From an uncultured Chloroflexia bacterium (lineage in GTDB: Bacteria; Chloroflexota; Anaerolineae; Anaerolineales; UBA4823): 64,000 nt of DNA. Positions 9,202 through 51,583 of this stretch are shown here, piece by piece. Both the position numbers and the translations under genes were made by a program. The stretch covers positions 3,287,237 through 3,351,236 of the forward strand of contig CAWGZV010000002.1 of the NCBI GenBank assembly GCA_963827155.1, in the 5' to 3' direction. The notes under the pieces are model-generated. The model ran no database searches. It had not been told where the DNA came from and was given only the letters and a program-made list of their open reading frames with translations. The stretch's first letter is position 1. Every line of letters begins with the position of its first letter.

Positions 9202-9948
9202 TCATGCCATAAAGATCTTCAGGGCTGCTAGAAATGCAAAAACGCCTCCAACGAGCAAACCGGCACGCAGCGTCTCTCCCGACCCGCGTAGATCAGTGAC
9301 CGGAGAATAAGGATCCTGCCTTTGGTAGAGCGGACCGGCTAACCAGGCAAATGTTGTTCCCCCAACCAGACCTCCCAGGTGCCCCCAGTTGTCGATCCCA
9401 GGTCTTAATCCGATCACCAGGTTGATCACAGCAATGGTCACCACATTGGTTAGCGAGCGCCGCGCCATAGGTCCAAATAATTTCCGGTTCTGGTAGAAGA
9501 ATACCCCTTCCGCTCCCAACAGCCCAAAGATTGCAGTAGATGCTCCCAGCGATGGCTCAACCGAAAACAGAAACGAGGCTACATTTCCAGTAAATCCGCT
9601 CAGCAAATAGAGTGTCAGGTACCGCCCCCGCCCATAGAACCGCTCCAACCCTGTTCCGATCACAAAAAGGGCGTACATATTAAAACCGATATGCAAAACG
9701 GAGGCATGCAGGAACATCGGTGTGAACAGGCGCCAGATCTGCCCCTGGATGATCAGCTCGTTCACCTTCATTCCAAAAGCTGCCGGCAGATCAGTTCCCA
9801 ATAGATACTGCGAAGCGAACTGAAGCCCATAAACCGCGATCGTAATCGCCATGAGTGAATAGGTAACAACCGGCTTCCAGCTTTTATTCATTCCGATCGC
9901 ACCTCCATCTGGCGCAGTCGGGGGACTATCTTGTTCGATGTTCGTCAT
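9202..9948 (-). CDS. Rhomboid-family intramembrane serine protease
   Basis: Six or more hydrophobic helices. Motifs FLHASVLHIGFNM, the catalytic GASTAIFGLLGA and HLGGLVGG. The start overlaps the gmk stop (ATGA). Confidence 0.85.
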   Translation of the reverse strand: MTNIEQDSPPTAPDGGAIGMNKSWKPVVTYSLMAITIAVYGLQFASQYLLGTDLPAAFGMKVNELIIQGQIWRLFTPMFLHASVLHIGFNMYALFVIGTGLERFYGRGRYLTLYLLSGFTGNVASFLFSVEPSLGASTAIFGLLGAEGVFFYQNRKLFGPMARRSLTNVVTIAVINLVIGLRPGIDNWGHLGGLVGGTTFAWLAGPLYQRQDPYSPVTDLRGSGETLRAGLLVGGVFAFLAALKIFMA

Positions 9949-10568
9949 AGCGCTACCTTTCTGTGGCGTACCCGGTGATGTTCTGCTGCGATGATCGCTT
10001 CAATCAAATCCAGAGTGTCTTCCAGGTGATCATCCTGGTTGATAACTACATAGTCAAACAACCCGATTTGCTTGAGTTCTTGCCGCGCCATCGCGATCCT
10101 TAACTTCAATCCTTCGGCATCTTCGCTTCGGCGGACTGTAAGCCTTCGAACCAGCTCGTCCTCGTCTTTCGGTGCCAGGAAGATCAGCAAGGCTTCGGGC
10201 ACCAGCTTGCGTACCGTGTCAGCCCCCTGCACATCCACCCGCATCACTACATCTTTGCCTGTCGTAAGCGCTTCCCGCACCTGCTGTTTGGGTACACCTT
10301 TATAATCCTCGTAAACGATTGCGTACTCGAGCAGCTCACCCTGCTCGATCATCTCGGCAAATTCATCCTTACTGAGGAAGAAATAATGTTCCCCATGCTT
10401 CTCTGTTGATCGTCGCGCCCGGGTAGTTGCGGTAATTACAAAGTGAAAAGGCAGCCCTCTCTCGCGCAGTCCCTCGATAACAGTGTCCTTTCCCGCCCCA
10501 GAAGGTCCGGAGATCACAATCAGGAGCGGCTCGGGGGTTAATGGATAAAATTCGTTTTCAGAAGACAC
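9945..10568 (-). CDS. gmk: Guanylate kinase
   Basis: P-loop ISGPSGAGKDT and the conserved TTRARR...GEHYFF pattern. Confidence 0.9.
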   Translation of the reverse strand: MSSENEFYPLTPEPLLIVISGPSGAGKDTVIEGLRERGLPFHFVITATTRARRSTEKHGEHYFFLSKDEFAEMIEQGELLEYAIVYEDYKGVPKQQVREALTTGKDVVMRVDVQGADTVRKLVPEALLIFLAPKDEDELVRRLTVRRSEDAEGLKLRIAMARQELKQIGLFDYVVINQDDHLEDTLDLIEAIIAAEHHRVRHRKVAL

Positions 10569-10648: not shown

Positions 10649-11050
10649 ATGCCCAACTATCCTTATCGCTGCCTGGACTGCAAGAAACGATTTGATGTTT
10701 TTCTTACATACGGCGAATATGGTGTAAAACCAGTCTCGTGTCCAAACTGTGGAAGTCAGAAACTCGAGCGCCGGATCAGCCGCATCCGCATTGCCCGCTC
10801 GGAAGAAAGCCGGCTGGATGGTCTTTCAAGTATGGATGGTCTCGATGACCTGGACGGCCTCGAAGATGATCCACGCGCCCTGGGGAAGATGATGCGTAAA
10901 ATGGGGCGGGAAATGGGAGAAGATGTCGGTCCCGAATTCGACGAAGTCATCGATCGTCTCGAAGCAGGGCAAAGCCCCGAAGAGATCGAATCAGCTTTGC
11001 CGGATTTAGGCGGTGATTTAGGCGCACCTGGCGGTATGGATGATTATTAA
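10649..11050 (+). CDS. FmdB/CxxC_CxxC_SSSS-family zinc-ribbon protein with a long acidic tail
   Basis: MPNYPYRCLDCKKRFD...CPNCGS. ATG 10649 is preceded by GGGAGGT. Confidence 0.75.
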   Translation: MPNYPYRCLDCKKRFDVFLTYGEYGVKPVSCPNCGSQKLERRISRIRIARSEESRLDGLSSMDGLDDLDGLEDDPRALGKMMRKMGREMGEDVGPEFDEVIDRLEAGQSPEEIESALPDLGGDLGAPGGMDDY

Positions 11051-11727
11051 GCCGGGGTTTTCCCCTTCAGTCGGTTCAATACAACCTGGCGGATCTCTGC
11101 CTGTACTTCCTCCAATGTCCGACCAGCATCTACAACTACCCAGCGGTCTGGACCAGCTTGCGCCAGTTTGAGGAACCCCTCACGCACACGCTGGTGGAAG
11201 GCACAGTCATAAGCATCCATGCGGTTCCACCCACCCTGATTCATCCGCCGCTCTAACCCTTTATCTATATCGACATCAAGGAGTAGGGTCAAATCTGGAG
11301 TCAAGCCGCCTGTTGCAAATGCGATTAGCGGCTTAAGTTCATCAATCGAGAACTGCTGGTGCCCAAACCCTTGATAGGCCAGAGTTGAGTCCGCGTATCG
11401 ATCCGAGACCACGAGATATCCCTCCGAAAGGCGAGGTTTGATCACTTGCTCTACCAGCTGCGACCTCGATGCCTGGAAGAGCAGGATCTCGGTGCGCGGG
11501 CGCATTTCTGTGTTCTTCAAACCCATCAGCACGGAGCGAATCTCATCTCCGATCGGCGTTCCGCCTGGTTCGCGGGTTGAATATACCTGGTATCCCTGTT
11601 CACGTAAGTATTCGGCCAGCGCGGCGACATGTGTTGTCTTACCGCTGCCCTCCGGTCCTTCAACCGTGATGAACACCCCGTTATCCTTCACGGAAAATTC
11701 GCACCCTCCGGTTCGGCTCTTTCCCAT
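11047..11727 (-). CDS. tmk: Thymidylate kinase
   Basis: FITVEGPEGSGKTT P-loop, DRY motif (SDRYADSTLAYQG). The start is uncertain: ATG 11727 or GTG 11691. The longer track ORF (to 11823) would overlap the upstream gene heavily. Confidence 0.85.
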   Translation of the reverse strand: MGKSRTGGCEFSVKDNGVFITVEGPEGSGKTTHVAALAEYLREQGYQVYSTREPGGTPIGDEIRSVLMGLKNTEMRPRTEILLFQASRSQLVEQVIKPRLSEGYLVVSDRYADSTLAYQGFGHQQFSIDELKPLIAFATGGLTPDLTLLLDVDIDKGLERRMNQGGWNRMDAYDCAFHQRVREGFLKLAQAGPDRWVVVDAGRTLEEVQAEIRQVVLNRLKGKTPA

Positions 11728-13303
11728 AGGAATGTGAGACCAGGTTCGCCTCTCTTGCCATTTGGTGCTGAAGCCTTCGGATTGAAGATGCCGCCGGGTG
11801 AAGCTCCACCCACCGCTCCCCATTCATGACAGCGTCAATTGCGCCGCGCGTCTCTTCTACCACGGCATCGATCGCAACGTTGCCCTGTTCGTCCGTATAA
11901 AGATTGAAAAGGTCGCCGAGGAACTGCTGCATCTGGTTCACTGTATTTGAGCGCAGCACATAGATCGGGATGCTTCTGTTCTCGGCGTCTGAGATCGTGC
12001 GTTGACGTTTGCGGTAATATGAGCGCAGCGTCACAAGCACATCCGCTTCACCTGGCTGGTCAACAATTGTCGCAGGTACAGCCAGCCGCCGCGCCGCCTG
12101 GACCAACCGGTTCCGCGCCACGCCATAAGGATAAATCTTCATGGGCTGCAACCCATTCCGACCTCGCCCCGGCATTGCCGGCTCAGGATAACGCCTCATG
12201 GGTTCATTTTCGAAGGGAGGGGCTTGCTGAGCGTAGCGCTCTGATGAGGGTTCATTCCCCTGGCGTCGGAAACCCTGCTGTCCGGTTGAAAGAGGCCGGT
12301 TTGGCGCCGGCGCTCGTTCAATTCGTATCTCCCCATCGATCCTCTCGCGGATCTCTGGAGGCAGCGGATATCCTCGCAGCAAGGAGTCCACTGCCGCAGC
12401 AACATCCGGGTGGACTGCAACTCGTTCTCGATTCTGAATCTCGATCAATACATCGAATGTTGGCGGAGCTCTCCGCTCGAGTACAGTCTTTTGGGTGCCG
12501 CGTCTGCGCGCTTCCTCATCCGATAGGGTGACGGATTCAATCCCTCCAACCAGGTCAGAAAGAGTTGGGTTCAGCAGCAGATTCTCCAGATTATTACCAT
12601 GCGCAGTTCCAATTAATTGAACTCCCCGCTCGGCAATCGTGCGTGCAGCCGCTGCTTCCAGCTCGCGGCCAATCTCGTCGATCACAATCGCTTCTGGATT
12701 GTGATTTTCGACAGCTTCGATCATCACCTCATGTTGAAGTGAAGGTTTGGCAACCTGCATTCGCCGGGCGCGTCCTACTGCGGGGTGAGGGACATCGCCA
12801 TCGCCACCTATCTCGTTCGAGGTGTCAACAATCACCACTCGCTTTGTCTCAGCCAGGATGCGTGCGGCTTCGCGCAGCATGGTTGTTTTTCCAACCCCTG
12901 GCCTCCCTAAGATCAGCAAACTTTTCCCACTCTCGATCAGGTCCTTGATGATATCCGTAGTTCCATAAACCGCCCGCCCAACCCGGCATGTCAGCCCTAC
13001 AATATAGCCGCGTCGGTTGCGGATGGCTGAGATCCTGTGAAGGGTTCGCTCTAATCCAGCCCGGTTGTCCGCGTCAAATTCCCCAATCCGCTCGACTACG
13101 AAGTCGATATCTTCGTCCGCGACATCAATTTCCCGCAGCGGCACTTCTCGAAGGACAAACCGCGCCGTTGGAATTCTCCCCAAATCCATAATGACCTCAA
13201 GCAGATTGTCGCTATCGTTGGCTTCTTTCACTGCCTCTGCAATCGGCTTGGGCAACACAGACATCAGGGCTTGCAGATCATCGGTAATTTTCTTCTGATA
13301 CAT
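11681..13303 (-). CDS. R3H-domain AAA+ ATPase (Ycf45/SpoIIIAA-like)
   Basis: Walker A LGRPGVGKTT, Walker B VIVDTSNEIGG / IVIDEIG. The C-terminal R3H-like end is VSHSYGKEPNRRVRIF. Confidence 0.8.
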   Translation of the reverse strand: MYQKKITDDLQALMSVLPKPIAEAVKEANDSDNLLEVIMDLGRIPTARFVLREVPLREIDVADEDIDFVVERIGEFDADNRAGLERTLHRISAIRNRRGYIVGLTCRVGRAVYGTTDIIKDLIESGKSLLILGRPGVGKTTMLREAARILAETKRVVIVDTSNEIGGDGDVPHPAVGRARRMQVAKPSLQHEVMIEAVENHNPEAIVIDEIGRELEAAAARTIAERGVQLIGTAHGNNLENLLLNPTLSDLVGGIESVTLSDEEARRRGTQKTVLERRAPPTFDVLIEIQNRERVAVHPDVAAAVDSLLRGYPLPPEIRERIDGEIRIERAPAPNRPLSTGQQGFRRQGNEPSSERYAQQAPPFENEPMRRYPEPAMPGRGRNGLQPMKIYPYGVARNRLVQAARRLAVPATIVDQPGEADVLVTLRSYYRKRQRTISDAENRSIPIYVLRSNTVNQMQQFLGDLFNLYTDEQGNVAIDAVVEETRGAIDAVMNGERWVELHPAASSIRRLQHQMAREANLVSHSYGKEPNRRVRIFREG

Positions 13304-20308: not shown

Positions 20309-21415
20309 ATGCCACACATTTATCCATTTACTGCAGTAGTTGGTCAAGAGCGCATGAAACGCGCTCTCGTTTTAAATGCAGTCAACCCGCGTATCGGTGG
20401 CGTCTTGATTCGCGGCGAACGCGGAACCGCCAAGTCTACCGCAGCGCGCGCGATGGCTGCTCTTCTCCCTAAAATTGAGGTGTTTTCAGATTCACCTTTC
20501 AATGATAACCCGAATGAACCGAACACCTGGTCTGACTGGGCGAAAGATCATTATAAGGATGCCGTGTCGCTGGATATCTCCTACCGTCAAATCCGCTTCG
20601 TTGACCTTCCCGTTAGCGCTACTGAAGATCGGGTGGTCGGGACGCTAGATATTGAAAAAGCAATCCAGAAAGGCGAGCGCCATTTTGAGCCAGGCGTGCT
20701 TGCAGCTGCGAACCGAGGTCTTTTGTATATTGATGAGGTCAATCTCCTCGATGATCATGTGGTCGACTTGCTTCTCGACTCTGCAGCAATGGGCATGAAC
20801 ATCGTTGAGCGTGAAGGAATTTCTTTCTCTCATCCATCTCGTTTCATCCTGGTTGGAACGATGAATCCCGAGGAAGGCGATCTCCGTCCCCAACTGCTCG
20901 ACCGGTTTGCCCTTTCAGTGGAGATCCACGGCATCCGTGAAGCCCGAGAGAGAGTTCTGATCATGCAGCGCAACCTGGCATTTGAAGATGATCCTGAGAA
21001 TTTCTATCAGCAGTGGCAGCCGCGCGAGCAGGAAGTTTCCCGTCAGATCGAGCAGGCGCGTCTCATTCTGGATAAGGTCACATATTCCAACAGGGACCTG
21101 ATTGCGATTGCCTCACTGACTTCTTCTTTGAATGTTGACGGTCATCGCGCAGATCTTGTCATTCTCAAGACAGCCCGTGCTCACGCGGCATTTGAGGGGC
21201 GCACTGAGATCTCCGAGCGCGATATTGCGCTTGCCGCCGAACTGGCGCTTCCTCACCGAATTAAGCGCGGTCCTTTCCACCAGGCTGAGATGACCATGGA
21301 AGACCTCCAGGAGCGGATCGAACAGCTCCAGGGCGCTACTCCTAACCAGCCTGAAATGGAGCCAGTCCCAGATGAGGAATCCACCGGCGAAAAAAAAAGA
21401 TCCGGTGACGGCTGA
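20309..21415 (+). CDS. ChlI/BchI-type AAA+ ATPase (Mg-chelatase subunit I family)
   Basis: YPFTAVVGQERMK, Walker A RGERGTAKST, Walker B LLYIDEVNLLDDH, GTMNPEEGDLRPQLLDRF. Ends 17 nt after an A9 tract. Confidence 0.85.
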   Translation: MPHIYPFTAVVGQERMKRALVLNAVNPRIGGVLIRGERGTAKSTAARAMAALLPKIEVFSDSPFNDNPNEPNTWSDWAKDHYKDAVSLDISYRQIRFVDLPVSATEDRVVGTLDIEKAIQKGERHFEPGVLAAANRGLLYIDEVNLLDDHVVDLLLDSAAMGMNIVEREGISFSHPSRFILVGTMNPEEGDLRPQLLDRFALSVEIHGIREARERVLIMQRNLAFEDDPENFYQQWQPREQEVSRQIEQARLILDKVTYSNRDLIAIASLTSSLNVDGHRADLVILKTARAHAAFEGRTEISERDIALAAELALPHRIKRGPFHQAEMTMEDLQERIEQLQGATPNQPEMEPVPDEESTGEKKRSGDG

Positions 21416-22355
21416 AATTTCCGAAGAAGAATCCAGCCAATCTCCCCCATCCGATCCATCCCGCCAGAATGTTTTTGATCAGCTCAGCGCAAACTGGTGG
21501 GAGGGCGGCGAAAAAGTAAAGATCGGGCAGACTTTTCTCCCACGAAAAATTCAAAATCCTCTAGACCGGATAAACCGGCGTTACGGCGGTCGCCGATCGC
21601 GGACGCACACCGAACGAAAACGCGGCCGCTACATCCAGTCTCGCCCAGCCAAAGGGAAGACGGACGATCTTGCTTTCGATGCAACTTTACGCGCCGCTGC
21701 CCCATATCAGAAAAACCGAATCTCCCAGCGCAAGCAAGTTGCCTTCGCTATTCAAAAAAGTGATCTTCAGCGCAAAGTGCGGATCAAAAAAGCCGCCAAC
21801 CTTATCCTTTTTGTGGTTGACGCATCCTGGTCAATGGCAGTGGCTGAACGCATGGCTGCCACGAAAGGCGCCATTCTATCACTGCTCACCGATGCCTACC
21901 AGCGGCGAGACCGGGTTGGTTTGGTCGTATTCCAAAAGAACCGCGCAACGCTTATCCTGCCGCCCACCAATTCTGTCCAGCTCGCCCAACATGCCCTGGC
22001 AGACATCCCTGTCGGAGGAAAGACTCCACTCTCGGCAGGTTTGTACATGGCACATGAAGTCGTCGAAAAAGAGCGCATTATCCATCCCGATGTCAATCCG
22101 TTGATCATTCTGCTAACCGATGGCGCCGGCAATGTATCAATGACCAGCCTGCCGCCTCAGGAGGAATCGAACCGGCTGGCAGACCGCATAGCCTCCGATG
22201 AAATCCGCTCTGTCGTCATCAACATGGAACATGCAGCATTTGACCAGGGGCTGGCAAAAAATCTTGCCGATCATCTTAAAGCAGCGTGTTACACTCTGAG
22301 CGATTTGAAAGCCGAAGTTCTTTACCAGAAAGTCCGCGAAGAGATGGGCTCTTGA
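21372..22355 (+). CDS. von Willebrand factor A (VWA) domain protein, ChlD C-terminal-like
   Basis: Acidic/Pro-rich N-terminus followed by a VWA domain with the MIDAS motif (ILFVVDASWSM). Overlaps the ChlI-like ORF by 44 nt, in the frame reached by deleting one A of the A9 tract. Confidence 0.8.
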   Translation: MRNPPAKKKDPVTAEISEEESSQSPPSDPSRQNVFDQLSANWWEGGEKVKIGQTFLPRKIQNPLDRINRRYGGRRSRTHTERKRGRYIQSRPAKGKTDDLAFDATLRAAAPYQKNRISQRKQVAFAIQKSDLQRKVRIKKAANLILFVVDASWSMAVAERMAATKGAILSLLTDAYQRRDRVGLVVFQKNRATLILPPTNSVQLAQHALADIPVGGKTPLSAGLYMAHEVVEKERIIHPDVNPLIILLTDGAGNVSMTSLPPQEESNRLADRIASDEIRSVVINMEHAAFDQGLAKNLADHLKAACYTLSDLKAEVLYQKVREEMGS

Positions 22356-22398: not shown

Positions 22399-22791
22399 GA
22401 ATATCCCAATATATTGAATATATTGATTCTTAGTAGTCGTAGTAGGTGTTGTGGATATGTGGATAGAATTGAACGCAATCGATTGTTATCCTCTTCGGTG
22501 CTGGTCGTTCGCTGCAGTCCCCCCATTCCTGGGATCGATTAAATTAAATCTCCATCGAACAGCTGTGGATAGAAACAGCCTCAAAAAAGGACAGAAGCTA
22601 AAAGTAAAATCCAATCTCAGGAATGGCTGAAAATAAAGATGTTAATCCAATAAACGGCGGATTTTTCCCGTCTTAATTCGAACAAAATTGCGAGTTTTCC
22701 CCAATTTTTGGGTTTTATCCACAGATTTTCCCGAGTTATCCACAGTTTTTCATCAGGTGTTCCAGGATCTCATAGGTCCTTCTGTGGATTA
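22399..22791. other. Candidate chromosomal replication origin (oriC-like DnaA-box cluster with DnaA-trios and an AT-rich unwinding flank)
   Basis: Perfect TTATCCACA boxes at 22715-22723 and 22736-22744. One-mismatch boxes on the other strand: TGTGGATAT 22450-22458, TGTGGATAG 22458-22466, TGTGGATAG 22564-22572, TGTGGATTA 22783-22791. A TAG TAG TCG TAG TAG array (22431-22445) sits 4 nt from the tandem boxes, next to an AT-rich stretch at 22399-22430. All of this lies in a 555-bp non-coding gap. Confidence 0.65.
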
Positions 22792-22910
22792 TTTGCAATA
22801 AAAACGAAATCGCCAGCAGCAATTTGCTAACCATCTCCCGTTTTGTAACCCTCATAAATTCGCTGCATCTAAGGTTTGCATTATATATTTGTAAAAGGAG
22901 ATAGAACTTC

Positions 22911-23309
22911 ATGGAAATGATGATTGACTTCCCCGGTGGATCCCGAGTCGATGCTCACTTTGGAAATTTTACAGTGCAAACGGATCAACCACCAGTTGCG
23001 AGTGCGCCAAGCCCGTTTGCTACATTTCTTGCTTCCATCGGCACCTGTGCGGGGATTTATGTGTTGGGTTTCTGTCAACAGCGCGGGCTGCCTTCCGAAG
23101 GCATTCGAATTATTCAGCACATGCATACTGACCCGTCGAATGGATTAGTAGGAAAAATTGACCTGGAGATTCAGGTTCCTCCTACATTCCCAGAGAAATA
23201 CCTTCCGGCCCTTGTTAAAAGCGCTGAACTCTGTGCAGTTAAAAAACACCTTGAACAGCCGCCTCAATTTGAGATTTTCACGCGCACAGCAGAGCTGACG
23301 CACTCATGA
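22911..23309 (+). CDS. OsmC/Ohr-family protein
   Basis: 132 aa with an OsmC-like pattern (FLASIGTCAGIYVLGFCQQRG...SAELCAVKKHL). SD AAAGGAGA upstream. Confidence 0.8.
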   Translation: MEMMIDFPGGSRVDAHFGNFTVQTDQPPVASAPSPFATFLASIGTCAGIYVLGFCQQRGLPSEGIRIIQHMHTDPSNGLVGKIDLEIQVPPTFPEKYLPALVKSAELCAVKKHLEQPPQFEIFTRTAELTHS

Positions 23310-26681: not shown

Positions 26682-27068
26682 TTAAAAGGGAAATTCTTCT
26701 TCGTCGGTCGGGGGAGGAGCGGGTGGTTCGTTTTCGTCCGCTTTGCGATCCAGCATCTGCATCTGCGCCGCCACAACTTTAGTGGACGTGCGCTTCTCTC
26801 CTTCATGCTCGTATTGGTCAGTTTGCAGGCGGCCCTCAACAAAGATCAGGCTCCCTTTTTTAAGATGCTCCTGGCAAACCTCACCCAGCCGACCCCAAGC
26901 CTCCACATTGAACCAATCGGTGGCTTCTTTTGCTTCACCTTCAGAGCTGATCCATCGCCGGTTAACGGCCACGCTGAACTTGCATACCTTCTTCCCGCTA
27001 GGTGTAAAACGGGTCTCTGGGTCTCTGCCCAGATTGCCAATCAACTGAACTCGATTGAGAGCGGGCAT
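26682..27068 (-). CDS. ssb: Single-stranded DNA-binding protein
   Basis: MPALNRVQLIGNLGRDPE OB-fold N-terminus and an acidic tip DEEEFPF. ATG 27068 is preceded by AAAGGAGG; the track start at 27086 is less likely. Confidence 0.9.
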   Translation of the reverse strand: MPALNRVQLIGNLGRDPETRFTPSGKKVCKFSVAVNRRWISSEGEAKEATDWFNVEAWGRLGEVCQEHLKKGSLIFVEGRLQTDQYEHEGEKRTSTKVVAAQMQMLDRKADENEPPAPPPTDEEEFPF

Positions 27069-27121
27069 TCTTCCTCCTTTATGCATCAGGGTTATCGAAG
27101 ATGAATATACACAGCTATTTT

Positions 27122-28007: not shown

Positions 28008-29024
28008 ATGCGCATTACCCGGGATTTTATTCAAAAATATACCCATGAATTTATTGAGCGCCGGGTATTTACCAGACATGATCTCATAGCTGTTTGCATG
28101 TGCGGTTCTTTTCTAAGAGAAAATTACCTGCTCGGCGGGGCCGGCGATGTCGATCTCTTCATGATCCACCTGGATACGCCCTCACTTAACCGTGAAATTG
28201 TTCGCATCACCGAAGATATCCATCTCGATATCGCCCATTTCAGCCAGCAGGATTTCCGAGATACACGCCGGCTGCGCATCGATCCCTGGATCGGTCCATC
28301 TCTGAATACATGTAAGATTTTATATGACAACCAGCATTTCATGGATTTTGTCCAGGCCAGCATCCGAGGCCAATTCGACCGCACAGATTATATCTATCAG
28401 CGCGTCCGTCCGCTCGCGGCGCAGGCACGCGAGACCTGGTTTCACCTGCAGTCCGAACAACCCGAATCCGAAGCCGCAGCCATCCAGAATTACTTGCAGG
28501 CGGTCGGAATGGCGGCGAATGCCATCGCCAGTTTGAGTGGACCTCCTCTCACGCCGCGGCGTATGCTTCTGGAGTTTCTTCAGAGGGCCGAAAGCCAAAA
28601 CCATCCTGGCTTCTATCATGGTCTGCTTGGACTGTTGGGAGCGCCGAAATTTGATCCGCTTCAGCTAGAAGGTTGGCTCAGCGCCTGGGAGGCTGCCTTC
28701 AGGGCATTACCCGAATTTAAAAAGCCAACTCGCCTGCATCCGGATCGCTTGAAGTACTACCTCGAGTCATTCAAGGCGATCTCTAACAGCGAACGACCGT
28801 TCACCTTGCTCTGGCCGCTCCTGACCACATGGACAGCGCTGATTGTCGCTTTGCCAGCCGACTCGCCGCACATCCATGCCTGGCAGCAGGCTGCCGCCAG
28901 CCTGGAGTTACTCGGACCAGCCCTGAATGAACGCATTCTTGCCCTTGACGCTTACCTGGATATGGTTGAGGAGACGATTGAGAGTTGGGCTCAGAACAAT
29001 GGCGTTTGGGAAGCAGATCAATAA
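28008..29024 (+). CDS. Hypothetical protein with a nucleotidyltransferase-fold N-terminus
   Basis: CGSFLRENYLLGGAGDVDLFMI fits the GS-x(n)-DxD minimal NTase pattern. The C-terminal region looks helical. Function unknown. Confidence 0.6.
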   Translation: MRITRDFIQKYTHEFIERRVFTRHDLIAVCMCGSFLRENYLLGGAGDVDLFMIHLDTPSLNREIVRITEDIHLDIAHFSQQDFRDTRRLRIDPWIGPSLNTCKILYDNQHFMDFVQASIRGQFDRTDYIYQRVRPLAAQARETWFHLQSEQPESEAAAIQNYLQAVGMAANAIASLSGPPLTPRRMLLEFLQRAESQNHPGFYHGLLGLLGAPKFDPLQLEGWLSAWEAAFRALPEFKKPTRLHPDRLKYYLESFKAISNSERPFTLLWPLLTTWTALIVALPADSPHIHAWQQAAASLELLGPALNERILALDAYLDMVEETIESWAQNNGVWEADQ

Positions 29025-29040
29025 TGTTTCACGTGAAACA
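29025..29040. other. parS centromere-like site, perfect consensus
   Basis: TGTTTCACGTGAAACA, a perfect 16-bp palindrome identical to the widely conserved ParB-binding consensus (tGTTtCAcGTGAAAca). It follows immediately after the stop codon at 29022-29024. Confidence 0.75.
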
Positions 29041-29091: not shown

Positions 29092-29107
29092 AGTTTCACG
29101 TGAAACA
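29092..29107. other. Second parS site (15/16 match)
   Basis: AGTTTCACGTGAAACA, 67 bp (start to start) from the first site, in the same convergent intergenic gap. Confidence 0.7.
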
Positions 29108-34219: not shown

Positions 34220-36997
34220 TCACACCGATTGGATCAACCGGCGCAGCCCGATCTGCAAATCGTCTTCGATATGGAAACGGATCACCTTTCGACCGCGATC
34301 CAGCAGCGCCTGGCTATCACCAAGCGCCTGGGCTCTTTCGAGCACCCCAAAACTGATCCGAGATTCCGCCTCTCCTAGCTTCTCTGGGATCGCAGCATCC
34401 TCCAGCGCTTCGCAAGTGATCTGGATGAACAATCCACGACCTGCATCGCCCTTGTGGAGCTGGCCGGTTGAATGCAGGAACCGCGGCCCGTATCCGGTTG
34501 TCACTGCAAGCTTCGTCCGCTCTCGCAGCTCGGTCCGCAGCGCCAGGAGCGACGCGTCGTTGGCGGTTGATGGTGGAATATAAGACAGCACAGCCAGGTA
34601 TCCACCAGGCTGTGCCTGGGAGAGGAACTCATCCCAGCATCCGGGCAGGTCTTTGCTCTGCATTGGACCAAAAACTTGGATGCCGTTTTTCCGAAGATTA
34701 GCCGCAGGTTCTGGCAGCTGCCCTGACTCCTGAAACGAAGCGACCATTTTTCGGGCGAGTATTTTTGCAGATTCCACATCTGGCTGGTCGAATGGCTGCA
34801 CCCCCAGGCGCTGACATGCAACCGCCGTGGCGAATTCCCAAAGAAAGATTTGCCCGCCCAGATCATAAGTATCTTCTATTGTTATACCGATTACTGGAAA
34901 TTCAGCCTGCTCCAACGCCTTCACCAAATTATCTTGATCGTGGTCGCCTGCCAGCCTTAGATAAACAAAAGCCCGGTCAGCTGCATATGAATTTGGATTA
35001 CCGGTGACTTCGCCTACTACCGGCAGGATCCCTATGCCAGATTTCCCGCTGCTTTCTGCGATGAGCTGTTCCAGCCAATCGCCGAATGTACGCAGTTCAG
35101 TGGAGCTGATCAGGGTCAGTTTATCCCGTCCCTGACGTGCCAGCTCACCTATGATCGCACCCAGATATACGCCGATATTTTCTACCGCCGGCGTTTTGGC
35201 GCAGACTGCTGCCATTCCGACCGCCCGCAAGAGCAGTTTGCGCAGGTCAATGCCTATCAGCCCGGCAGGCGCCAATCCAAAAAGCGAAAGCCCCGAAAAC
35301 CGCCCACCAATGTTAGGATCATTTAATAATATCGTCCGGAATTTGAAGCTCTCTGCGATCTTCGCAATCTCACTACCAGGGTCAGTGATTGCGACGAAAT
35401 GGGCGCCGACTTGCTCCACACCCAGGCTCTCAGCAGCTAGGTTGTAGAAAAATTCCATAAAAGATGCCGTTTCAACAGTCCCGCCCGATTTCGTGGAGAC
35501 GAGATATAGCGTCTTTGCCGGGTTCAGCCTTCGCGCCGCCTCGAGCACAGCTGCAGGGTCAGTGCTGTCGAGCACAGACAGATCGAGATATCCGGGTTTT
35601 ACCCCGAAGCATTTCCGAAATACCTCTGGCGCCAGGCTGGAGCCTCCCATCCCAAGAAGCAGGGCATGCGTGTAACCTGCTCCCCGCACATCGGATACAA
35701 GCTGCTCAATCCGTGTCACCTGATCCAGCATGACTTCGGCGGTTTGTAACCAGCCCAACCGGTTTGTGATTTCGCTCGGATCGGGATTCCACACTGTGTG
35801 GTCCCCTTTCCAGATCCGTGAGATTATTTCATCTTGGTCGATTTCAGCCAGGGCGCGGTTCACTTTTGCCTGGGTTTTTCCAAGCCGAACGGATAAACTC
35901 AGCTCTTCTGCTCGCATGAACTCATATTTTCGTTCCAACCCATCCATCAGCGAGTTGAATGATTTTGCAAATGCCGCGACACCCTCATCTTCCAGCTTCT
36001 GTGTTACTCCATCGAGATCGATCCCTATCTCATGCAGCTGGTTGAGCTGGTGGAGAGATTCGGGGATACCAGACTCGAGTGATGATCTCGCCTTTCCGTG
36101 ATCCAAAATCGCTTCGAGCGTGATAGGGGGGAGAGTGTTCACGGTCTGCGTTCCAACCAGCGCCTCGACATAATATGTGTCCGGATACGCTGGATTCTTG
36201 GTGCTGGTGCTTGCCCAAAGTGGTCGCTGGACCTGAGCGCCTCTCGCAGCCAACTGCATCCAACGCTCGCTTCCGTACATCTCACAAAAGCGAGAATAAG
36301 CTGCCCTGGAATTCGCGATCGCAATTTTTCCTTCAAGCGCGCCAGCTCCTGCAGCTTTAAGCAGCGGATCCAGCATCGTATCGACCCGGCTCACAAAGAA
36401 AGATGCTACCGAGGCGATCCTTCCGATCTCGCCGCCAGCCTTCAACCGCTCTTCCAACCCGCGCATATGTGCCTCAATTACGGCTTCGTACTGCTTGATC
36501 GAGAAAATCAGAGTCACATTGATGTTTACCCCGCTTCTGAGCGCCTCCTGGATCGCAGGGAGTCCTTCGTTTGTCGCCGGGATCTTAACCATCAGGTTTG
36601 CTCGATCTACCATCTTGAACAGTCGAATGGCATCAGATGCGGTCTTTTCGGAATCATATGCCAGCCTGGGGCTGACCTCTAAACTCACAAACCCATCTCT
36701 GCCGCCGCTGCTTTCATAAACCGGGAGCAAAATATCTGCCGCCTGACGGATATCCGCGATGACCAGCGCTTCGTAAGTCTCCGGCAGGGTCTTCCGCTGC
36801 CGCACCAGTTCCCGCAGTTCTTCATCGTACTCCTGGCTACCGCGAATCGCTTTTTCGAAAATGCTTGGATTGGAAGTCAGTCCGCGAAGCCCAAGTTGGA
36901 CCAGTCTTGCCAGCTCGCCGCTTGAAAAATAATCTCTGCGGATATCGTCCAGCCAGATAGACTGCCCTGCTTCAAGAAATTGGCTGAGTTTTGCCAT
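34220..36997 (-). CDS. Bifunctional transaldolase / glucose-6-phosphate isomerase fusion protein
   Basis: 925 aa. The N-terminal transaldolase part includes GLRGLTSNPSIFEKAI and MVKIPAT. The C-terminal PGI-like SIS domains include LLGMGGSSLAPE. Confidence 0.9.
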   Translation of the reverse strand: MAKLSQFLEAGQSIWLDDIRRDYFSSGELARLVQLGLRGLTSNPSIFEKAIRGSQEYDEELRELVRQRKTLPETYEALVIADIRQAADILLPVYESSGGRDGFVSLEVSPRLAYDSEKTASDAIRLFKMVDRANLMVKIPATNEGLPAIQEALRSGVNINVTLIFSIKQYEAVIEAHMRGLEERLKAGGEIGRIASVASFFVSRVDTMLDPLLKAAGAGALEGKIAIANSRAAYSRFCEMYGSERWMQLAARGAQVQRPLWASTSTKNPAYPDTYYVEALVGTQTVNTLPPITLEAILDHGKARSSLESGIPESLHQLNQLHEIGIDLDGVTQKLEDEGVAAFAKSFNSLMDGLERKYEFMRAEELSLSVRLGKTQAKVNRALAEIDQDEIISRIWKGDHTVWNPDPSEITNRLGWLQTAEVMLDQVTRIEQLVSDVRGAGYTHALLLGMGGSSLAPEVFRKCFGVKPGYLDLSVLDSTDPAAVLEAARRLNPAKTLYLVSTKSGGTVETASFMEFFYNLAAESLGVEQVGAHFVAITDPGSEIAKIAESFKFRTILLNDPNIGGRFSGLSLFGLAPAGLIGIDLRKLLLRAVGMAAVCAKTPAVENIGVYLGAIIGELARQGRDKLTLISSTELRTFGDWLEQLIAESSGKSGIGILPVVGEVTGNPNSYAADRAFVYLRLAGDHDQDNLVKALEQAEFPVIGITIEDTYDLGGQIFLWEFATAVACQRLGVQPFDQPDVESAKILARKMVASFQESGQLPEPAANLRKNGIQVFGPMQSKDLPGCWDEFLSQAQPGGYLAVLSYIPPSTANDASLLALRTELRERTKLAVTTGYGPRFLHSTGQLHKGDAGRGLFIQITCEALEDAAIPEKLGEAESRISFGVLERAQALGDSQALLDRGRKVIRFHIEDDLQIGLRRLIQSV

Positions 36998-43966: not shown

Positions 43967-44509
43967 ATGATCGAAAAATCAGCCAGCAGCCAGAACATGC
44001 CAGAATTCGCCCCCCTCTCCCGAATTCGCCGCAACCATGGGCTCGAGCATGCCACTTTACACATCCTCGCCGAACGTCATCCCGGCAAGCCAATGGCGGG
44101 TCATTCAGACGCCTCCGGTTTCTGGATTATTTCCGAGCTTTCTGAAGACCAGGTCGCAAGCGCTGTCCAGGAAGCTCTTAGCCGTCTGCGTGCCGGCGAA
44201 GCAAAGCTGGCTGTTCACCCAAACTGCGGTACTAACATTGCCACTGCTGGCGTTTTGGCTGGCCTGGCAGCCGGACTGGCGATGTACGGCGCCGGGCGGA
44301 AGCTGCGTAACAACCTTGAGCGCCTCCCAACTGCAATTGCCCTTGCTACACTGGCATTGATCGCCGCCCAACCGCTTGGCTTGCTGCTCCAGGAACGCTT
44401 CACCACCTCAGGCGTGCCCGGAGATCTGCACGTGTTGGCATTGGAGTCGCGCCGCATAAGCCGCACTTCGGGTACTTTGATCGCTCACAGGATAAAAACT
44501 CAGGGGTGA
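43967..44509 (+). CDS. Conserved hypothetical membrane-associated protein
   Basis: SRIRRNHGLEHATLHIL...KLAVHPNCGTNIATAGVLAGLAAGL. ATG 43967 has AGGAG 5 nt upstream; the track start is 43925. Confidence 0.6.
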   Translation: MIEKSASSQNMPEFAPLSRIRRNHGLEHATLHILAERHPGKPMAGHSDASGFWIISELSEDQVASAVQEALSRLRAGEAKLAVHPNCGTNIATAGVLAGLAAGLAMYGAGRKLRNNLERLPTAIALATLALIAAQPLGLLLQERFTTSGVPGDLHVLALESRRISRTSGTLIAHRIKTQG

Positions 44510-44511
44510 TA

Positions 44512-45657
44512 ATGCCCGAATCATCTCGGTCAATATTCCTGCTGCACGGTGAAGATGAATATGGAATTGCCTTGAGGCTGGCGGAATTCGAATCAAGCCT
44601 CGGCGACCCAGCGAATGCAGCTTTGAATATCACCCGCCTGAACGGAGATTCGTTCCAACCGGACCAGCTCCTATCCGTTGCGGCAGCGATGCCCTTTCTA
44701 GCCAGCCGCCGTCTGGTGATCGTCACGGGGGTGCTATCCCGCCTGACCAGGGTACCCACCCAAGAGGCAGTAATTGAAGCACCGGTTGAAGGAAAACCGG
44801 TAGAAGTGCAGGTGTCAGGTGATGCGTCTAACCGAGATAAGACTGCAGATGTGAAGAAGGTCGCCAGAGAACAGATTGATAAAGAGAAATTAACTGCAGC
44901 CCAGAGGAAATTCGTAGATCTGATAAGTAAAATTCCGTCAACCACAACGCTGCTCTTAATTGAAATTTTGCCGCCCCATCTAACCAAGACTGAACAAAAA
45001 AAGTTTGATCTTGGTTGGTTTAAGAAGGAAACTGAAAAACGATCTATCGCGATCAAAATCGAATCGTTTGATCTCCCTAAAGGCGTGGATTGGACGCGCC
45101 GCCTCCAAGCAATGGCCCGCAGCTCGGGCGGACAGATCTCGCCGGCTGCCGCCCAATTGCTTTATAGTTTGCTGAATGGGGATGTCCGGCTCGCCGACCA
45201 GGAAATCCAGAAACTCCTGGCGTACGTCAATTATCAACGCCAGATAGAAGTTGAGGATATCCAGGCAGTTACCGAGGATGTCGGGCAGGGGAGCATCTTT
45301 GCACTGGTTGAAGCGCTGGGCGACCGCAATGGACGCCAGGCTTTGAGTATGCTCCGACGGCTGATGGAAAATCAGGATGACCAGGCAATATTTGGGATGA
45401 TTGTTCGCCAGTTTCGCTTGTTGATCCTTACTCGGGCGATGTTAGATATGGGACGTAGCAGAGCAGAAATCACGAAGCATCTAAAAGTTGCAGATTTTGT
45501 CGTTGATCGACTGTTCGAACAGCTTCGCCGTTTTTCAACTGCCGACCTGGATCGGATTTACCACCGCTTGTTAGAGATCGACGAGCAGGTGAAGAAGAGC
45601 CAGATTAGCAGAGACCTCGCTATGCAAACTTTCGTAACGGCTCTGGCTTTGCGCTGA
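44512..45657 (+). CDS. holA: DNA polymerase III delta subunit
   Basis: IFLLHGEDEYG...AAMPFLASRRLVIV N-terminal domain and a C-terminal HolA-like helical domain (VEALGDRNGRQALSMLRRL). A charged insertion of ~45 aa follows the first domain. Confidence 0.8.
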   Translation: MPESSRSIFLLHGEDEYGIALRLAEFESSLGDPANAALNITRLNGDSFQPDQLLSVAAAMPFLASRRLVIVTGVLSRLTRVPTQEAVIEAPVEGKPVEVQVSGDASNRDKTADVKKVAREQIDKEKLTAAQRKFVDLISKIPSTTTLLLIEILPPHLTKTEQKKFDLGWFKKETEKRSIAIKIESFDLPKGVDWTRRLQAMARSSGGQISPAAAQLLYSLLNGDVRLADQEIQKLLAYVNYQRQIEVEDIQAVTEDVGQGSIFALVEALGDRNGRQALSMLRRLMENQDDQAIFGMIVRQFRLLILTRAMLDMGRSRAEITKHLKVADFVVDRLFEQLRRFSTADLDRIYHRLLEIDEQVKKSQISRDLAMQTFVTALALR

Positions 45658-48538: not shown

Positions 48539-51500
48539 ATGAGCAATCCGTTGAATTTTCAATCCATTATCTTGAAACTCCAAGATTTTTGGGCAAGCCG
48601 GGGCAGTCTTATCTGGCAGCCTTATTACGCTCAGGTTGGTGCAGGCACATACAACCCTGCCACGTTTCTGCGGGTCTTAGGCCCCGAACCATGGAACGTC
48701 GCCTATGTAGAGCCCTCCATCCGTCCGGACGATGGGCGATATGGTGAAAACCCAAATCGTATGCAAATGCATTATCAGTTCCAGGTCATTCTCAAGCCCG
48801 ATCCTGGCAACCCGCAGGAGATCTACCTCGAGTCACTCCAGGCGATCGGGATCGACCCTCTTCAGCATGACATCCGCTTCGTCGAAGATAACTGGGAATC
48901 GCCCGCCCTGGGTGCCTGGGGGCTTGGTTGGGAGGTGTGGTGCGATGGGCAAGAGATTACCCAATTCACCTATTTTCAGCAAGCCGGCGGAATCCAGCTT
49001 GATCCGGTCTCTGTCGAGATCACATATGGCTTGGAGCGGATCGCGATTGCGCTTCAGGGTGTAGAAGGTTTTCAGGATATTCAGTGGAATGAAACCCTTA
49101 CCGATGGAGACGTGAATCTGCAGGCTGAAGAAGAGCACAGCCGATATTATTTTGAAATTGCCGATGTCGTCCGCCTTCGCCAAATGTATGACCTCTACGA
49201 ACAAGAAGCACAAGCCTGTCTGGAGAAAGGTTTAGTACTGCCTGCCCATGATTATCTTCTAAAGTGCTCGCATACTTTCAATATACTGGATACTCGTGGA
49301 GCAGTGGGTGTCACCGAGCGTCAGGGTTTGTTCGCTCGGATGCGCGATGTGGCGAAAGGCGTCGCCCAGGCTTATTTGGATCAGCGCCAGCGACTTGAGT
49401 TTCCGCTCCTCGACAAGGCTCAGCTCTTGCATCCACAAATGGACGATGTTTCTCTAACCCCCCAGATTTCCCCTGGACCTATTACTGATCTCCCTGAGAA
49501 AGGTGCATTCTTGCTTGAAATTGGAGTCGAGGAGCTCCCTGCTGGCGATCTCGATTCTGCCCTTTATCAGCTTGGAGTCTCTGTTCCGGCTCTATTGGCA
49601 GAACTGCGGCTTGCATATCAGGTTCTGCAAGTGATGGGTACGCCCCGTCGTTTGGTGGTCGTAGTTGAAGAGCTTGCCTCTCGTCAGGCAGACCTGGAAC
49701 AGTGGATTAAGGGACCTCCTGCCGACAAAGCTTTTGCACCTGATGGCTCGCCGACCAAAGCAGTCGAGGGTTTCGCTCGCAGCAAAGGTATTTCAATTGC
49801 AGATTTGGAAATCCGTGAAGTTGAAGGTGGGCGGTATGTCGGTGCCCTGGTGCACCAATCAGGGAAATCGATAGTAGAAGTCTTTGCCGAGGCTCTCCCG
49901 AAGCTGATTGCCTCAATCCGCTTTGAAAAGCCTATGCGCTGGAACCCGAGCAATGTCCTTTTCTCGCGGCCGATTCGTTGGCTGGTGGCGATCTTCTCTC
50001 ACGGTGAAGACTGTACAATAATCCCTTTTGAATTCGCCGGTTTGCTTTCCGGATGTGTGACCAAGGGGCTGCGTTTTAGAATGCCTTTGGAATATTGCGT
50101 TCATTCGCCTCTTGAATATTTCGATTTTCTATCATCTCAAGGCATCGTGCTGGACTCAAACTCCAGGCAGGCTACGGTGAGAGAACAAGTTGCCGCGCTT
50201 GCAAACTCTGCTGGGGGAGTGGTATCCAACGATCCAGAGCTGTTTGCGGAAGTGACAAATTTGGTCGAAGCGCCAACAGCTCTGCTCGGCTCGTTCAATC
50301 CCGACTACCTCAAGCTTCCGCCTGAAGTACTCATCTCGGTTATGAAAAAGCACCAGCGCTATTTCCCGGTGCTTTCTGGTAAGAAAGTTTCTGCCGAGGA
50401 AGTGCCGCTGCCTTGTTTCATCGCCGTCAGAAATGGCGACAATGAAGGTCTAGATACTGTAGTGGAAGGGAATCAACATGTGATTCGCGCCAGGTTTGCG
50501 GATGCGAATTTCTTCGTGCGTGAAGATCTTAAGAAACCGCTTGAAGACTACCTCCCACGCCTGTCCACGCTTACTTTTCAAGCGCGGTTGGGGACTATGA
50601 GAGACAAGGTCACTCGGATCCAGGCTCTGGTTGAAGACCTGAGTCAACAAGTTGGGCTGGATAATGACCAGCTTCGCACGGCACGCCGCGCTGCGCTGCT
50701 CTCTAAAGCCGATCTGGGCACAAGGATGGTAGTTGAGATGACATCCTTACAAGGTCAGATTGGCCGTTACTATGCGCTGCGCTCAGGCGAAATGAGGGAA
50801 GTCGCCCAGGCGATATTAGATCATTATTTGCCCCGGCATGCAGGCGACCAGCTGCCCGCCAGCCGTCCGGGTCTTGTAATCGGTCTGGCCGATCGCCTGG
50901 ATACACTCGCCGGGTTGTTTTCTGCTGGATTAATCCCTTCAGGCAATAAAGATCCATTCGCCTTGAGGCGCCATGCCCTCGGTCTCGTCCAAATCCTGGT
51001 CTCGTGGGATATCGATTTTAATATCGATGAAGGACTGTGTCTGGCTGCCTCGCATCTTCCTATCTCTAGCAGCACCGAAATACTATCTGCCTGCTCGAAC
51101 TTTGTGGTAGAGCGCTTTCGAAATATCCTGTTGGATCAGGGACGTCGCTATGATATTGTCGATGCTGTCCTGGCGGTTCAGGGCCATAATCCGGCGGCAG
51201 CATCACGGGGGGTTGCACAGCTTCAGATATGGACCTCCCGCCCGGATTGGCACCGGATCTTGCCAGCTTATGCCCGTTGTGTGCGCATTACCCGGGATCT
51301 TGAGGAGCAATTTGAAATTGAAAGCAGCCTATTTGCAGAGCAAGCCGAGCGTGATCTCTACCATGATTTGGTCCAGGCTGAGCAGCTAAATCCATCATCT
51401 GCTTCTGTGGATCAATTTCTTAACACTTTTCTGCCCATAATTCCAGCGATTGATCGTTTTTTTGAGCAGGTGCTGGTAATGTCCGAAGACCACCAGATGC

Positions 51501-51583
51501 GTCAAAACCGCCTGGGTTTGCTGCAGCGGATTGCATTATTGGCAGAAAGGGTTGCTGACCTCTCTCGTCTCGAAGGTTTTTAG
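48539..51583 (+). CDS. glyQS: Glycine--tRNA ligase, fused alpha and beta subunits
   Basis: The N-terminal ~290 aa is GlyQ ([33 protein letters not shown]). The remainder is GlyS-like. Single 1014-aa ORF. Confidence 0.9.

Follow-up and report, generated by a model that had tools for sequence, protein, structure and literature searches.

The window, a stretch of 64 kb of contig CAWGZV010000002.1 from an uncultured member of the Anaerolineales (Chloroflexota), carries a module that matches the basal unwinding system (BUS) of bacterial replication origins, placed in the 555-bp non-coding gap between a gene for a VWA-domain protein and an osmC-like gene. We consider it probable, at roughly 0.8, that this module is the chromosomal replication origin (oriC) of this Anaerolineales lineage, with a canonical BUS core. 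An earlier note on this DNA had proposed an oriC here, and that proposal is supported by the match to experimentally defined BUS sequences, by conservation of the module in about 48 sequences, by the specificity of its core motif and by a flip of strand skew at the module in relatives. A BUS-type oriC is an already known kind of element; what is added is the location between a chelatase-like gene and osmC.

On the plus strand, the module reads GAATATCCCAATATATTGAATATATTGATTCT (22399-22430), TAGTAGTCGTAGTAG (22431-22445), GTGT and TGTGGATATGTGGATAG (22450-22466). The first segment is an AT-rich DNA unwinding element (DUE, without a strand), and the A+T content reaches 72% in the 60 nt upstream of the DnaA-trios. 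Inside the DUE, the 9-mer AATATATTG occurs twice in tandem (22408-22425), and the 30-mer 22408-22437 ranks second lowest for duplex stability in the 64 kb (z = 3.8). The trios follow on the plus strand as 5'-TAG TAG TCG TAG TAG-3' (3'-GAT-5' repeats), in which the third trio counted from the boxes is TCG, with a central C. The spacer GTGT (22446-22449, without a strand) then leads to a co-oriented pair of DnaA boxes on the minus strand, ATATCCACA and CTATCCACA, each with one mismatch, offset by 8 bp and overlapping by 1 nt.

Further boxes lie to the right of the module. They comprise an auxiliary one-mismatch box CTATCCACA on the minus strand (22564-22572), which is an 11-nt exact repeat of 22458-22468; a weak box-like site TTTTCCCCA with two mismatches on the plus strand (22695-22703), within a conserved block GTTTTCCCCA; two perfect boxes TTATCCACA on the plus strand (22715-22723 and 22736-22744), 21 bp apart from start to start, ~250 bp right of the module and 170-195 bp 5' of osmC; and an auxiliary one-mismatch box TAATCCACA on the minus strand (22783-22791). 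Six boxes, two perfect and four with one mismatch (22450, 22458, 22564 and 22783), fall within 342 bp. The whole window contains 25 matches with ≤ 1 mismatch against 9.9 ± 2.7 expected, and 0 of 100 shuffles reached 25, so that the cluster of DnaA boxes looked for in an oriC is present beyond chance. All of the parts that the earlier note had read from the letters, namely the two perfect and four one-mismatch boxes, the tandem overlapping pair, the trios four nucleotides from it and the AT-rich stretch beyond them, were recovered.

The BUS was experimentally defined at the Bacillus subtilis oriC as TAGTAG...GGCC-TGTGGATTTGTGGATAA (PMC8287927). The strand-separation scaffolds are TAGTAGAAGTAATAGTAG-GGCC-TGTGGATTTGTGGATAAGT for B. 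subtilis (oligonucleotide oHM558), TAGTAATAGTAGTAG-GTGC-TGTGGATTGGTGGATAAGT for Staphylococcus aureus and TAGATCAGTAGTAGTAG-GGGC-TGTGGAAAATGTGGAAAAGG for Synechococcus elongatus, the latter two with trios TAGTAGTAG (PMC8287927, supplement 5). A comparison of polarity based on the oligonucleotide table of Pelliciari 2021 (PMC8287927) showed that TAGTAGTCGTAGTAG-GTGT-TGTGGATATGTGGATAG of the window has the same trio strand, polarity, 8-bp offset of co-oriented boxes and 4-nt spacer as all three scaffolds, in agreement with the DnaA-trio arrangement beside a box pair that had been claimed for this site. The 8-bp box offset is that of B. subtilis boxes 6/7 and of the S. aureus pair. Under the published BUS rules, a DnaA box has ≤ 2 mismatches and may be joined by a second co-oriented box with ≤ 4 mismatches, 0-3 bp away (PMC8287927); the window has two one-mismatch boxes on the same strand. 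The first-located box lies ≤ 16 bp, most commonly 13 bp, from the first trio, and a 'GC-rich region' of ~4 nt adjoins the trios (PMC8287927); here trio 1 is 4 nt from the proximal box and 12 nt from the distal one. Origin function in B. subtilis depends critically on how the boxes are oriented, and their reversal inactivates the origin (PMC6669920), and the orientation of trios and boxes in the window is as in oHM558. The easily melted AT-rich tract of a BUS is represented by 22399-22430.

The likeness extends to the layout of whole origins. The BUS of the B. subtilis oriC (incC) consists of DnaA-boxes 6/7, GGCC, DnaA-trios and an AT-rich 27-mer (Richardson 2016, 2019; Pelliciari 2021, 2023), and the window shares this order and polarity, with 5'-TAG-3' trios on the strand that reads 5'-TGTGGATAA-3' in both. 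In both, too, the AT-rich tract comes after the trios as seen from the boxes, and auxiliary boxes lie on the opposite side of the pair; the B. subtilis spacer GGCC recurs with identical letters in many Anaerolineales relatives and has the same length of 4 nt in the window. Unlike the B. subtilis origin at dnaA-dnaN, however, the module lies between the VWA gene and osmC, and its auxiliary boxes form a fixed pair ~265 bp away. The S. elongatus layout, TAGTAGTAG-GGGC-TGTGGAAAATGTGGAAAAGG, is also that of the window. In many cyanobacteria dnaA is likewise not beside the origin, which still adjoins dnaN, whereas the window has neither gene within 22 kb to the left or 41 kb to the right of the module. 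Escherichia coli oriC (mnmG-mioC) is likewise a chromosomal origin that does not adjoin dnaA or dnaN. Its DUE is on the TGTGGATAA side of the flanking box R1, the polarity seen in the window, but its 13-mer repeats, IHF/Fis sites, GATC/SeqA control and arrays of low-affinity boxes are not evident in the window.

The core motif, TAGTAG-N4-TGTGGATATGTGGA, is specific for origins. A scan of public metagenomes found it in 120 contigs with 26-68% G+C, and in 51 of the 80 contigs with interpretable flanks it stood in the arrangement dnaN(-), motif, dnaA(-). The remaining contigs comprised 21 with the Anaerolineales context, 8 with other contexts and 40 that were too short to place. In many phyla, the motif marks the origin between dnaA and dnaN; given the 51 contigs of this kind, it is an empirical indicator of chromosomal origins.

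The VWA protein has its best relatives, at 68-88% identity, in 80 loci from metagenome-assembled genomes (MAGs) of the Anaerolineales (Chloroflexota). A box-pair search in these 80 related loci found the module in 24 genomes, once per locus, and it is likewise single in the window. The 24 genomes are those that share the synteny clpC-S1-AAA-VWA ... osmC-ychF-pepF. The relatives' consensus consists of an AT-rich tract, nGTAGTnnTAGTAG, GGCC/GGGG/GGGC/AGCC and TGTGGATATGTGGAnA; the AT-rich tract beyond the trios is present in all of them and varies in sequence. In an alignment of 12 genomes, the conserved blocks were the trios, the spacer length, the box pair, GTTTTCCCCA, the two perfect boxes and a short osmC-proximal motif. 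The box pair 22450-22466 was invariant, as was the second perfect box, and the first perfect box differed at one position in one genome. The box at 22783-22791 was not conserved, and the remaining gap was variable and rich in indels, unlike what would be expected of a coding region or a structured RNA; in the same alignment the small open reading frames (ORFs) of the gap were not conserved, and the gap gave no Rfam match even at E ≤ 1. Between the closest relatives, the neighbouring proteins are only 85-91% identical, so that synonymous sites are saturated. That the box pair, the trios and the perfect boxes are nevertheless intact implies that selection on the module is ongoing.

The module lies 0.1-4.8 kb after the VWA gene (up to ~6.3 kb in L008) and 0.4-3.3 kb before osmC in the relatives, and because its distance to either gene varies, it travels independently of both. 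A unit of ~350 bp recurs in the 24 related genomes and in 24 metagenomic Anaerolineales contigs, with different flanking genes. In 22 of the 24 contigs a pair TTATCCACA-N12-TTATCCACA lies 253-291 bp from the box pair, compared with 265 bp in the window. Such a self-contained unit with changing neighbours is what an origin would look like. The metagenomic contigs show two arrangements, either VWA...module...osmC or, inverted with respect to the window, a block pepF-ssb-dNK-hyp338, in which hyp338 is a gene for a 338-aa protein. The inverted block was seen in loci L102, L112, L146, L154, L168 and L173 and further in L182, L185, L187, L190, L193 and L197; there, the origin is bordered on the side of its boxes by the 3' end of hyp338 and has a dNK paralogue on the side of its DUE. 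Inversions adjacent to the origin seem to be common in the Anaerolineales.

The central C of the third trio is a feature of the lineage. Among 49 Anaerolineales origins, 33 had C in the middle of trio 3 (TCG or TCT) and 11 had A, whereas of 28 distinct dnaA-dnaN origins with the same core motif 25 had A there and 2 had C. The middle base was A or C in 44-48 of the 49 Anaerolineales origins at trios 3-5. Pelliciari et al. 2023 (PMC10721633) showed that a DnaA-trio can function in vitro with cytosine in place of its central adenine; in vivo, C at this position sustains the firing of origins better than G or T does (PMC10721633). The C-centred trios of the Anaerolineales look like a natural instance of this replacement, and the C-centred trio 3 would lend natural support to the experimental claim. 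The BUS finder requires ≥ 3 consecutive trios with a central adenine (NAN), with the consensus 3'-GAT-5' (PMC8287927). Because it demands three consecutive NAN, it would miss the window module and most of the relatives, or about two thirds of Anaerolineales origins. The same rule may account for the weakness of the BUS candidate that was derived from DoriC for Anaerolinea thermophila UNI-1, which has a two-mismatch box, a 16-nt spacer and a score of 7 (PMC8287927, supplement 3); this candidate was not found in any retrieved locus. Our literature search found no description of an Anaerolineae origin.

Strand composition in the relatives points to diverging forks. GC skew at third codon positions (GC3) was computed for the plus strand and balanced over genes of both strands in the 17 module relatives with enough sequence, with 25 same-family loci lacking the module, split at the VWA end, as controls. 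The mean GC3 skew in the relatives rose from -0.043 on the left of the module to +0.090 on the right; the right side had the higher value in 16 of the 17, and in 13 a negative left side faced a positive right side (Wilcoxon p = 4.6e-5). The control loci showed no shift (mean -0.019, p = 0.25) and differed from the relatives (Mann-Whitney p = 2e-5). This flip of GC3 at the module is the signature of diverging forks.

Two other indicators of origin proximity, parS sites and a switch of gene orientation, are found in the window itself. The two parS sites that the earlier note had reported are real: a perfect copy, TGTTTCACGTGAAACA (29025-29040), and a one-mismatch copy (29092-29107), with 0 expected. 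The pair lies 6.6 kb from the box pair and is conserved at the same place in two relatives (L002 and L003), and no parS sites were found in the 24 metagenomic Anaerolineales origin contigs. Genes to the left of the module are 13 on the minus and 7 on the plus strand, and those to the right are 8 on the minus and 25 on the plus strand (Fisher p = 0.0045). From 38.8 to 64 kb every gene is on the plus strand (20 consecutive), including holA, glyQS, dnaG, rpoD and nuoA-E.

Adjacency to dnaA or dnaN, which is usual for an oriC and not obligatory, is lacking. Pfam scans and tblastn detected neither gene in the 64-kb window, and neither lies within 10 kb of the module in 24 of 24 relatives. The two genes have other chromosomal locations in this lineage. 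An origin away from dnaA-dnaN had been called unusual, which it is not in itself, since the E. coli oriC was also relocated away from dnaA (PMC6669920). Our DnaA search returned 7,983 proteins at E ≤ 1e-100, and the best 120 of them led to dnaA loci of other genomes only. In eight Anaerolineales dnaA loci, all from other genomes, dnaA follows a gene for a GAF-HisKA_3 kinase, dnaN is not next to it and no DnaA-box cluster is nearby; the second box cluster that was to be checked for at dnaA is absent there, so the dnaA neighbourhood is not a competing origin in the Anaerolineales. An upstream region of ~300-470 bp precedes dnaA and is strongly conserved in the two loci compared (L050 and L078). 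In six more distant Anaerolineales loci (L050, L063, L073, L075, L056 and L078), dnaA lies upstream of the AAA-VWA gene pair, which it directly adjoins in three; spans of such dnaA-AAA-VWA loci are L050:2361-4915, L063:3842-6563 and L073:151-2703. This occasional linkage hints, weakly, at an ancestral proximity.

Several observations weigh against the oriC reading. The skew switch that had been set as a test is absent inside the window, where the GC3 skew of the plus strand is uniformly negative at about -0.105 on both sides and for both gene strands (left, -0.156 for minus-strand and -0.115 for plus-strand genes; right, -0.122 and -0.054, respectively). The coefficient for left versus right is just +0.02 to +0.026 ± 0.013, and no significant change point occurs anywhere in the 64 kb (maximum F = 4.1 at 44.5 kb). 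Three relatives (L001, L002 and L023) likewise show no change of sign. In addition, the strict trio rule of the BUS finder is broken by TCG at trio 3, which interrupts the four TAG trios, and the spacer GTGT, with 50% G+C, is less G+C-rich than in the relatives. All five trios do qualify when the central base may be A or C.

These observations leave some room for a second reading, which we regard as unlikely but as the most serious of the alternatives: the module would be a conserved DnaA unwinding element at which forks do not diverge in this genome, and perhaps not in its closest relatives, so that it would be a dormant, secondary or backup origin, or replication would be strongly asymmetric. 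A uniformly negative GC3 over 64 kb, including a right flank for which an origin predicts positive values, is what this reading would expect, and the window also lacks the motifs CCCCATATATGGGG and ATATGGGG, which are present in most of the relatives' origins, and has GTGT in place of a spacer made of G and C only. However, leftward forks through 38.8-64 kb would put the 20 consecutive plus-strand genes (rpoD, dnaG, glyQS and nuo among them) head-on to replication, the parS sites are 6.6 kb away, and the intact box pair, trios and perfect boxes point to continuing selection. Some relatives without the palindrome (L019 and L030) still show the skew flip.

The skew of the window is a property of the genome and not of the genes, because the orthologues of these genes in L003 are skewed in the opposite sense. 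Local skew is preserved by inversions that include the origin, and those that exclude it would disrupt the synteny that the window shares with L002 and L003. The orientation switch and the skew of the window disagree. As a separate observation, third codon positions on the plus strand of the window are both C-rich (GC3 about -0.105) and T-rich (AT skew at third positions, AT3, about -0.10) for either gene strand and on both sides of the origin, and this pyrimidine excess fits the usual pattern of neither the leading nor the lagging strand.

Consensus DnaA boxes also cluster at a distance from dnaA in E. coli datA and DARS1/2 and in the DnaA-box clusters (DBCs) of B. subtilis, and the site could in principle be such a titrating or reactivating locus, or a DnaA-controlled promoter of osmC or of the chelatase-like genes. 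We consider this very improbable, although the boxes are dense outside a dnaA-dnaN region, two perfect ones lie 170-195 bp upstream of osmC, and the window shows no skew switch. Titration or regulatory clusters, including datA, DARS and the DBCs, are not known to carry a polar box pair, 4-nt spacer, trios and DUE, nor to be associated with a skew switch. The combination of all four parts is present here and marks dnaA-dnaN origins in metagenomes, and an identity with datA, DARS or DBC does not fit because the unwinding module is there. Nor would such sites be expected to show the skew flip of the relatives. A role in osmC regulation does not fit because the module persists where osmC has been moved away or exchanged for another neighbour: the cluster is intact where 1-3 kb of other genes precede osmC (L005, L007, L011, L014, L023 and L034) and where hyp338 replaces osmC as the neighbour. 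The least plausible alternative, with hardly any weight left to it, is the origin of an integrated plasmid, chromid or other mobile element, which could account for the non-classical location and for the variable spacing to flanking genes but is at odds with the housekeeping flanks in conserved synteny in many genomes (clpC, rpsA-like S1, pdxST, ychF, pepF and ssb), with the lack of rep, integrase and mobilisation genes in Pfam scans of the window, with parS sites that match the chromosomal consensus and with a single module per locus in a stable neighbourhood.

If the module is the chromosomal origin, its action in this genome can be proposed by analogy with B. subtilis. Domain IV of DnaA would bind the co-oriented box pair at 22450-22466, and an ATP-DnaA oligomer would extend over the 4-nt spacer onto the plus-strand trios at 22431-22445, with one protomer per trinucleotide. 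The DNA would thereby be stretched, and the adjoining DUE at 22399-22430 would open for helicase loading and, eventually, firing. The boxes 100-340 bp to the right may supply the complex with more DnaA, probably through a loop, as has been proposed for boxes 1-5 of B. subtilis (PMC6669920), and the invariant perfect pair at 22715/22736 would be the main candidate for this distal DnaA supply.

A second factor may act on Anaerolineales origins. The 14-bp palindrome CCCCATATATGGGG (≤ 1 mismatch) occurs in two settings alone in ~1.4 Mb of Anaerolineales loci. The first is in origins, ~195-207 bp from the box pair; it was seen in 15 of them (L013 and 14 whose box pair was mapped), with sites at L002:11269, L005:9074, L006:13109, L010:10708, L014:13976 and L039:12728, among others. 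The second is ~325-335 bp upstream of dnaA (L050:2029, L056:4451, L063:3703, L078:3099 and L081:9673). The half-site ATATGGGG is enriched ~100-fold in origins (2.39 vs 0.023 per kb) at recurrent offsets. Neither palindrome nor half-site occurs in the 28 dnaA-dnaN origins of other phyla, and both are absent from the origin in the window. The palindrome is a candidate site for a second regulator shared by the origin and dnaA; a dimeric factor that binds CCCCATATATGGGG may govern Anaerolineales origins, and the palindrome may have been lost from the window copy.

With the module as oriC, the replication origin would have a specific and recognisable locus in an order of Chloroflexota that is large and mostly uncultured. 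Such a placement helps genome rotation, annotation, origin databases and skew- and coverage-based growth-rate estimates for MAGs by the peak-to-trough ratio (PTR) or iRep. It would also represent another independent separation of oriC from dnaA and dnaN.

The gap of 555 bp is bounded by the genes that the earlier note had named. On the left, the VWA gene (21372-22355, plus strand, Pfam VWA_2) is one half of a split chelatase-like pair, with the AAA half at 20309-21415; TIGR02442 (putative cobaltochelatase) is spread over both ORFs. The BchI/BchD-like AAA and VWA ORFs (20309-22355) overlap by 44 nt, and the split is kept in 80 of 80 related loci. On the right, the gene for an OsmC-like protein (22911-23309, plus strand, Pfam OsmC) follows. 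In the lineage, the origin has stayed linked to both flanks, namely the AAA/VWA pair and, on the opposite side, osmC-ychF-pepF-ssb-dNK-parS. A motif TGTAACC-N13-TGCATCTAA (22844-22872), ~40-65 bp 5' of osmC, is kept in most of the aligned genomes and is probably an osmC promoter or leader and not part of the origin; a consensus scan for sigma-70-type promoters gave no match in the gap and did not call this motif.

The replication and nucleotide genes named in the earlier note were each located in the window, namely gmk (9945-10568), tmk (11047-11823), ssb (26682-27086), holA (44506-45657) and dnaG (56157-58118). The gene hyp338 (28008-29024, plus strand) ends one base before the first parS site. 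Its product has no Pfam or NCBIfam match, and by eye its N-terminus resembles the GS...DxD motif of the nucleotidyltransferase fold; in other Anaerolineales it is the gene that adjoins the origin. The window also encodes a transaldolase-phosphoglucose isomerase fusion of 925 aa (34220-36997, minus strand) and a single-chain GlyQ-GlyS glycyl-tRNA synthetase of 1014 aa (48539-51583, plus strand).

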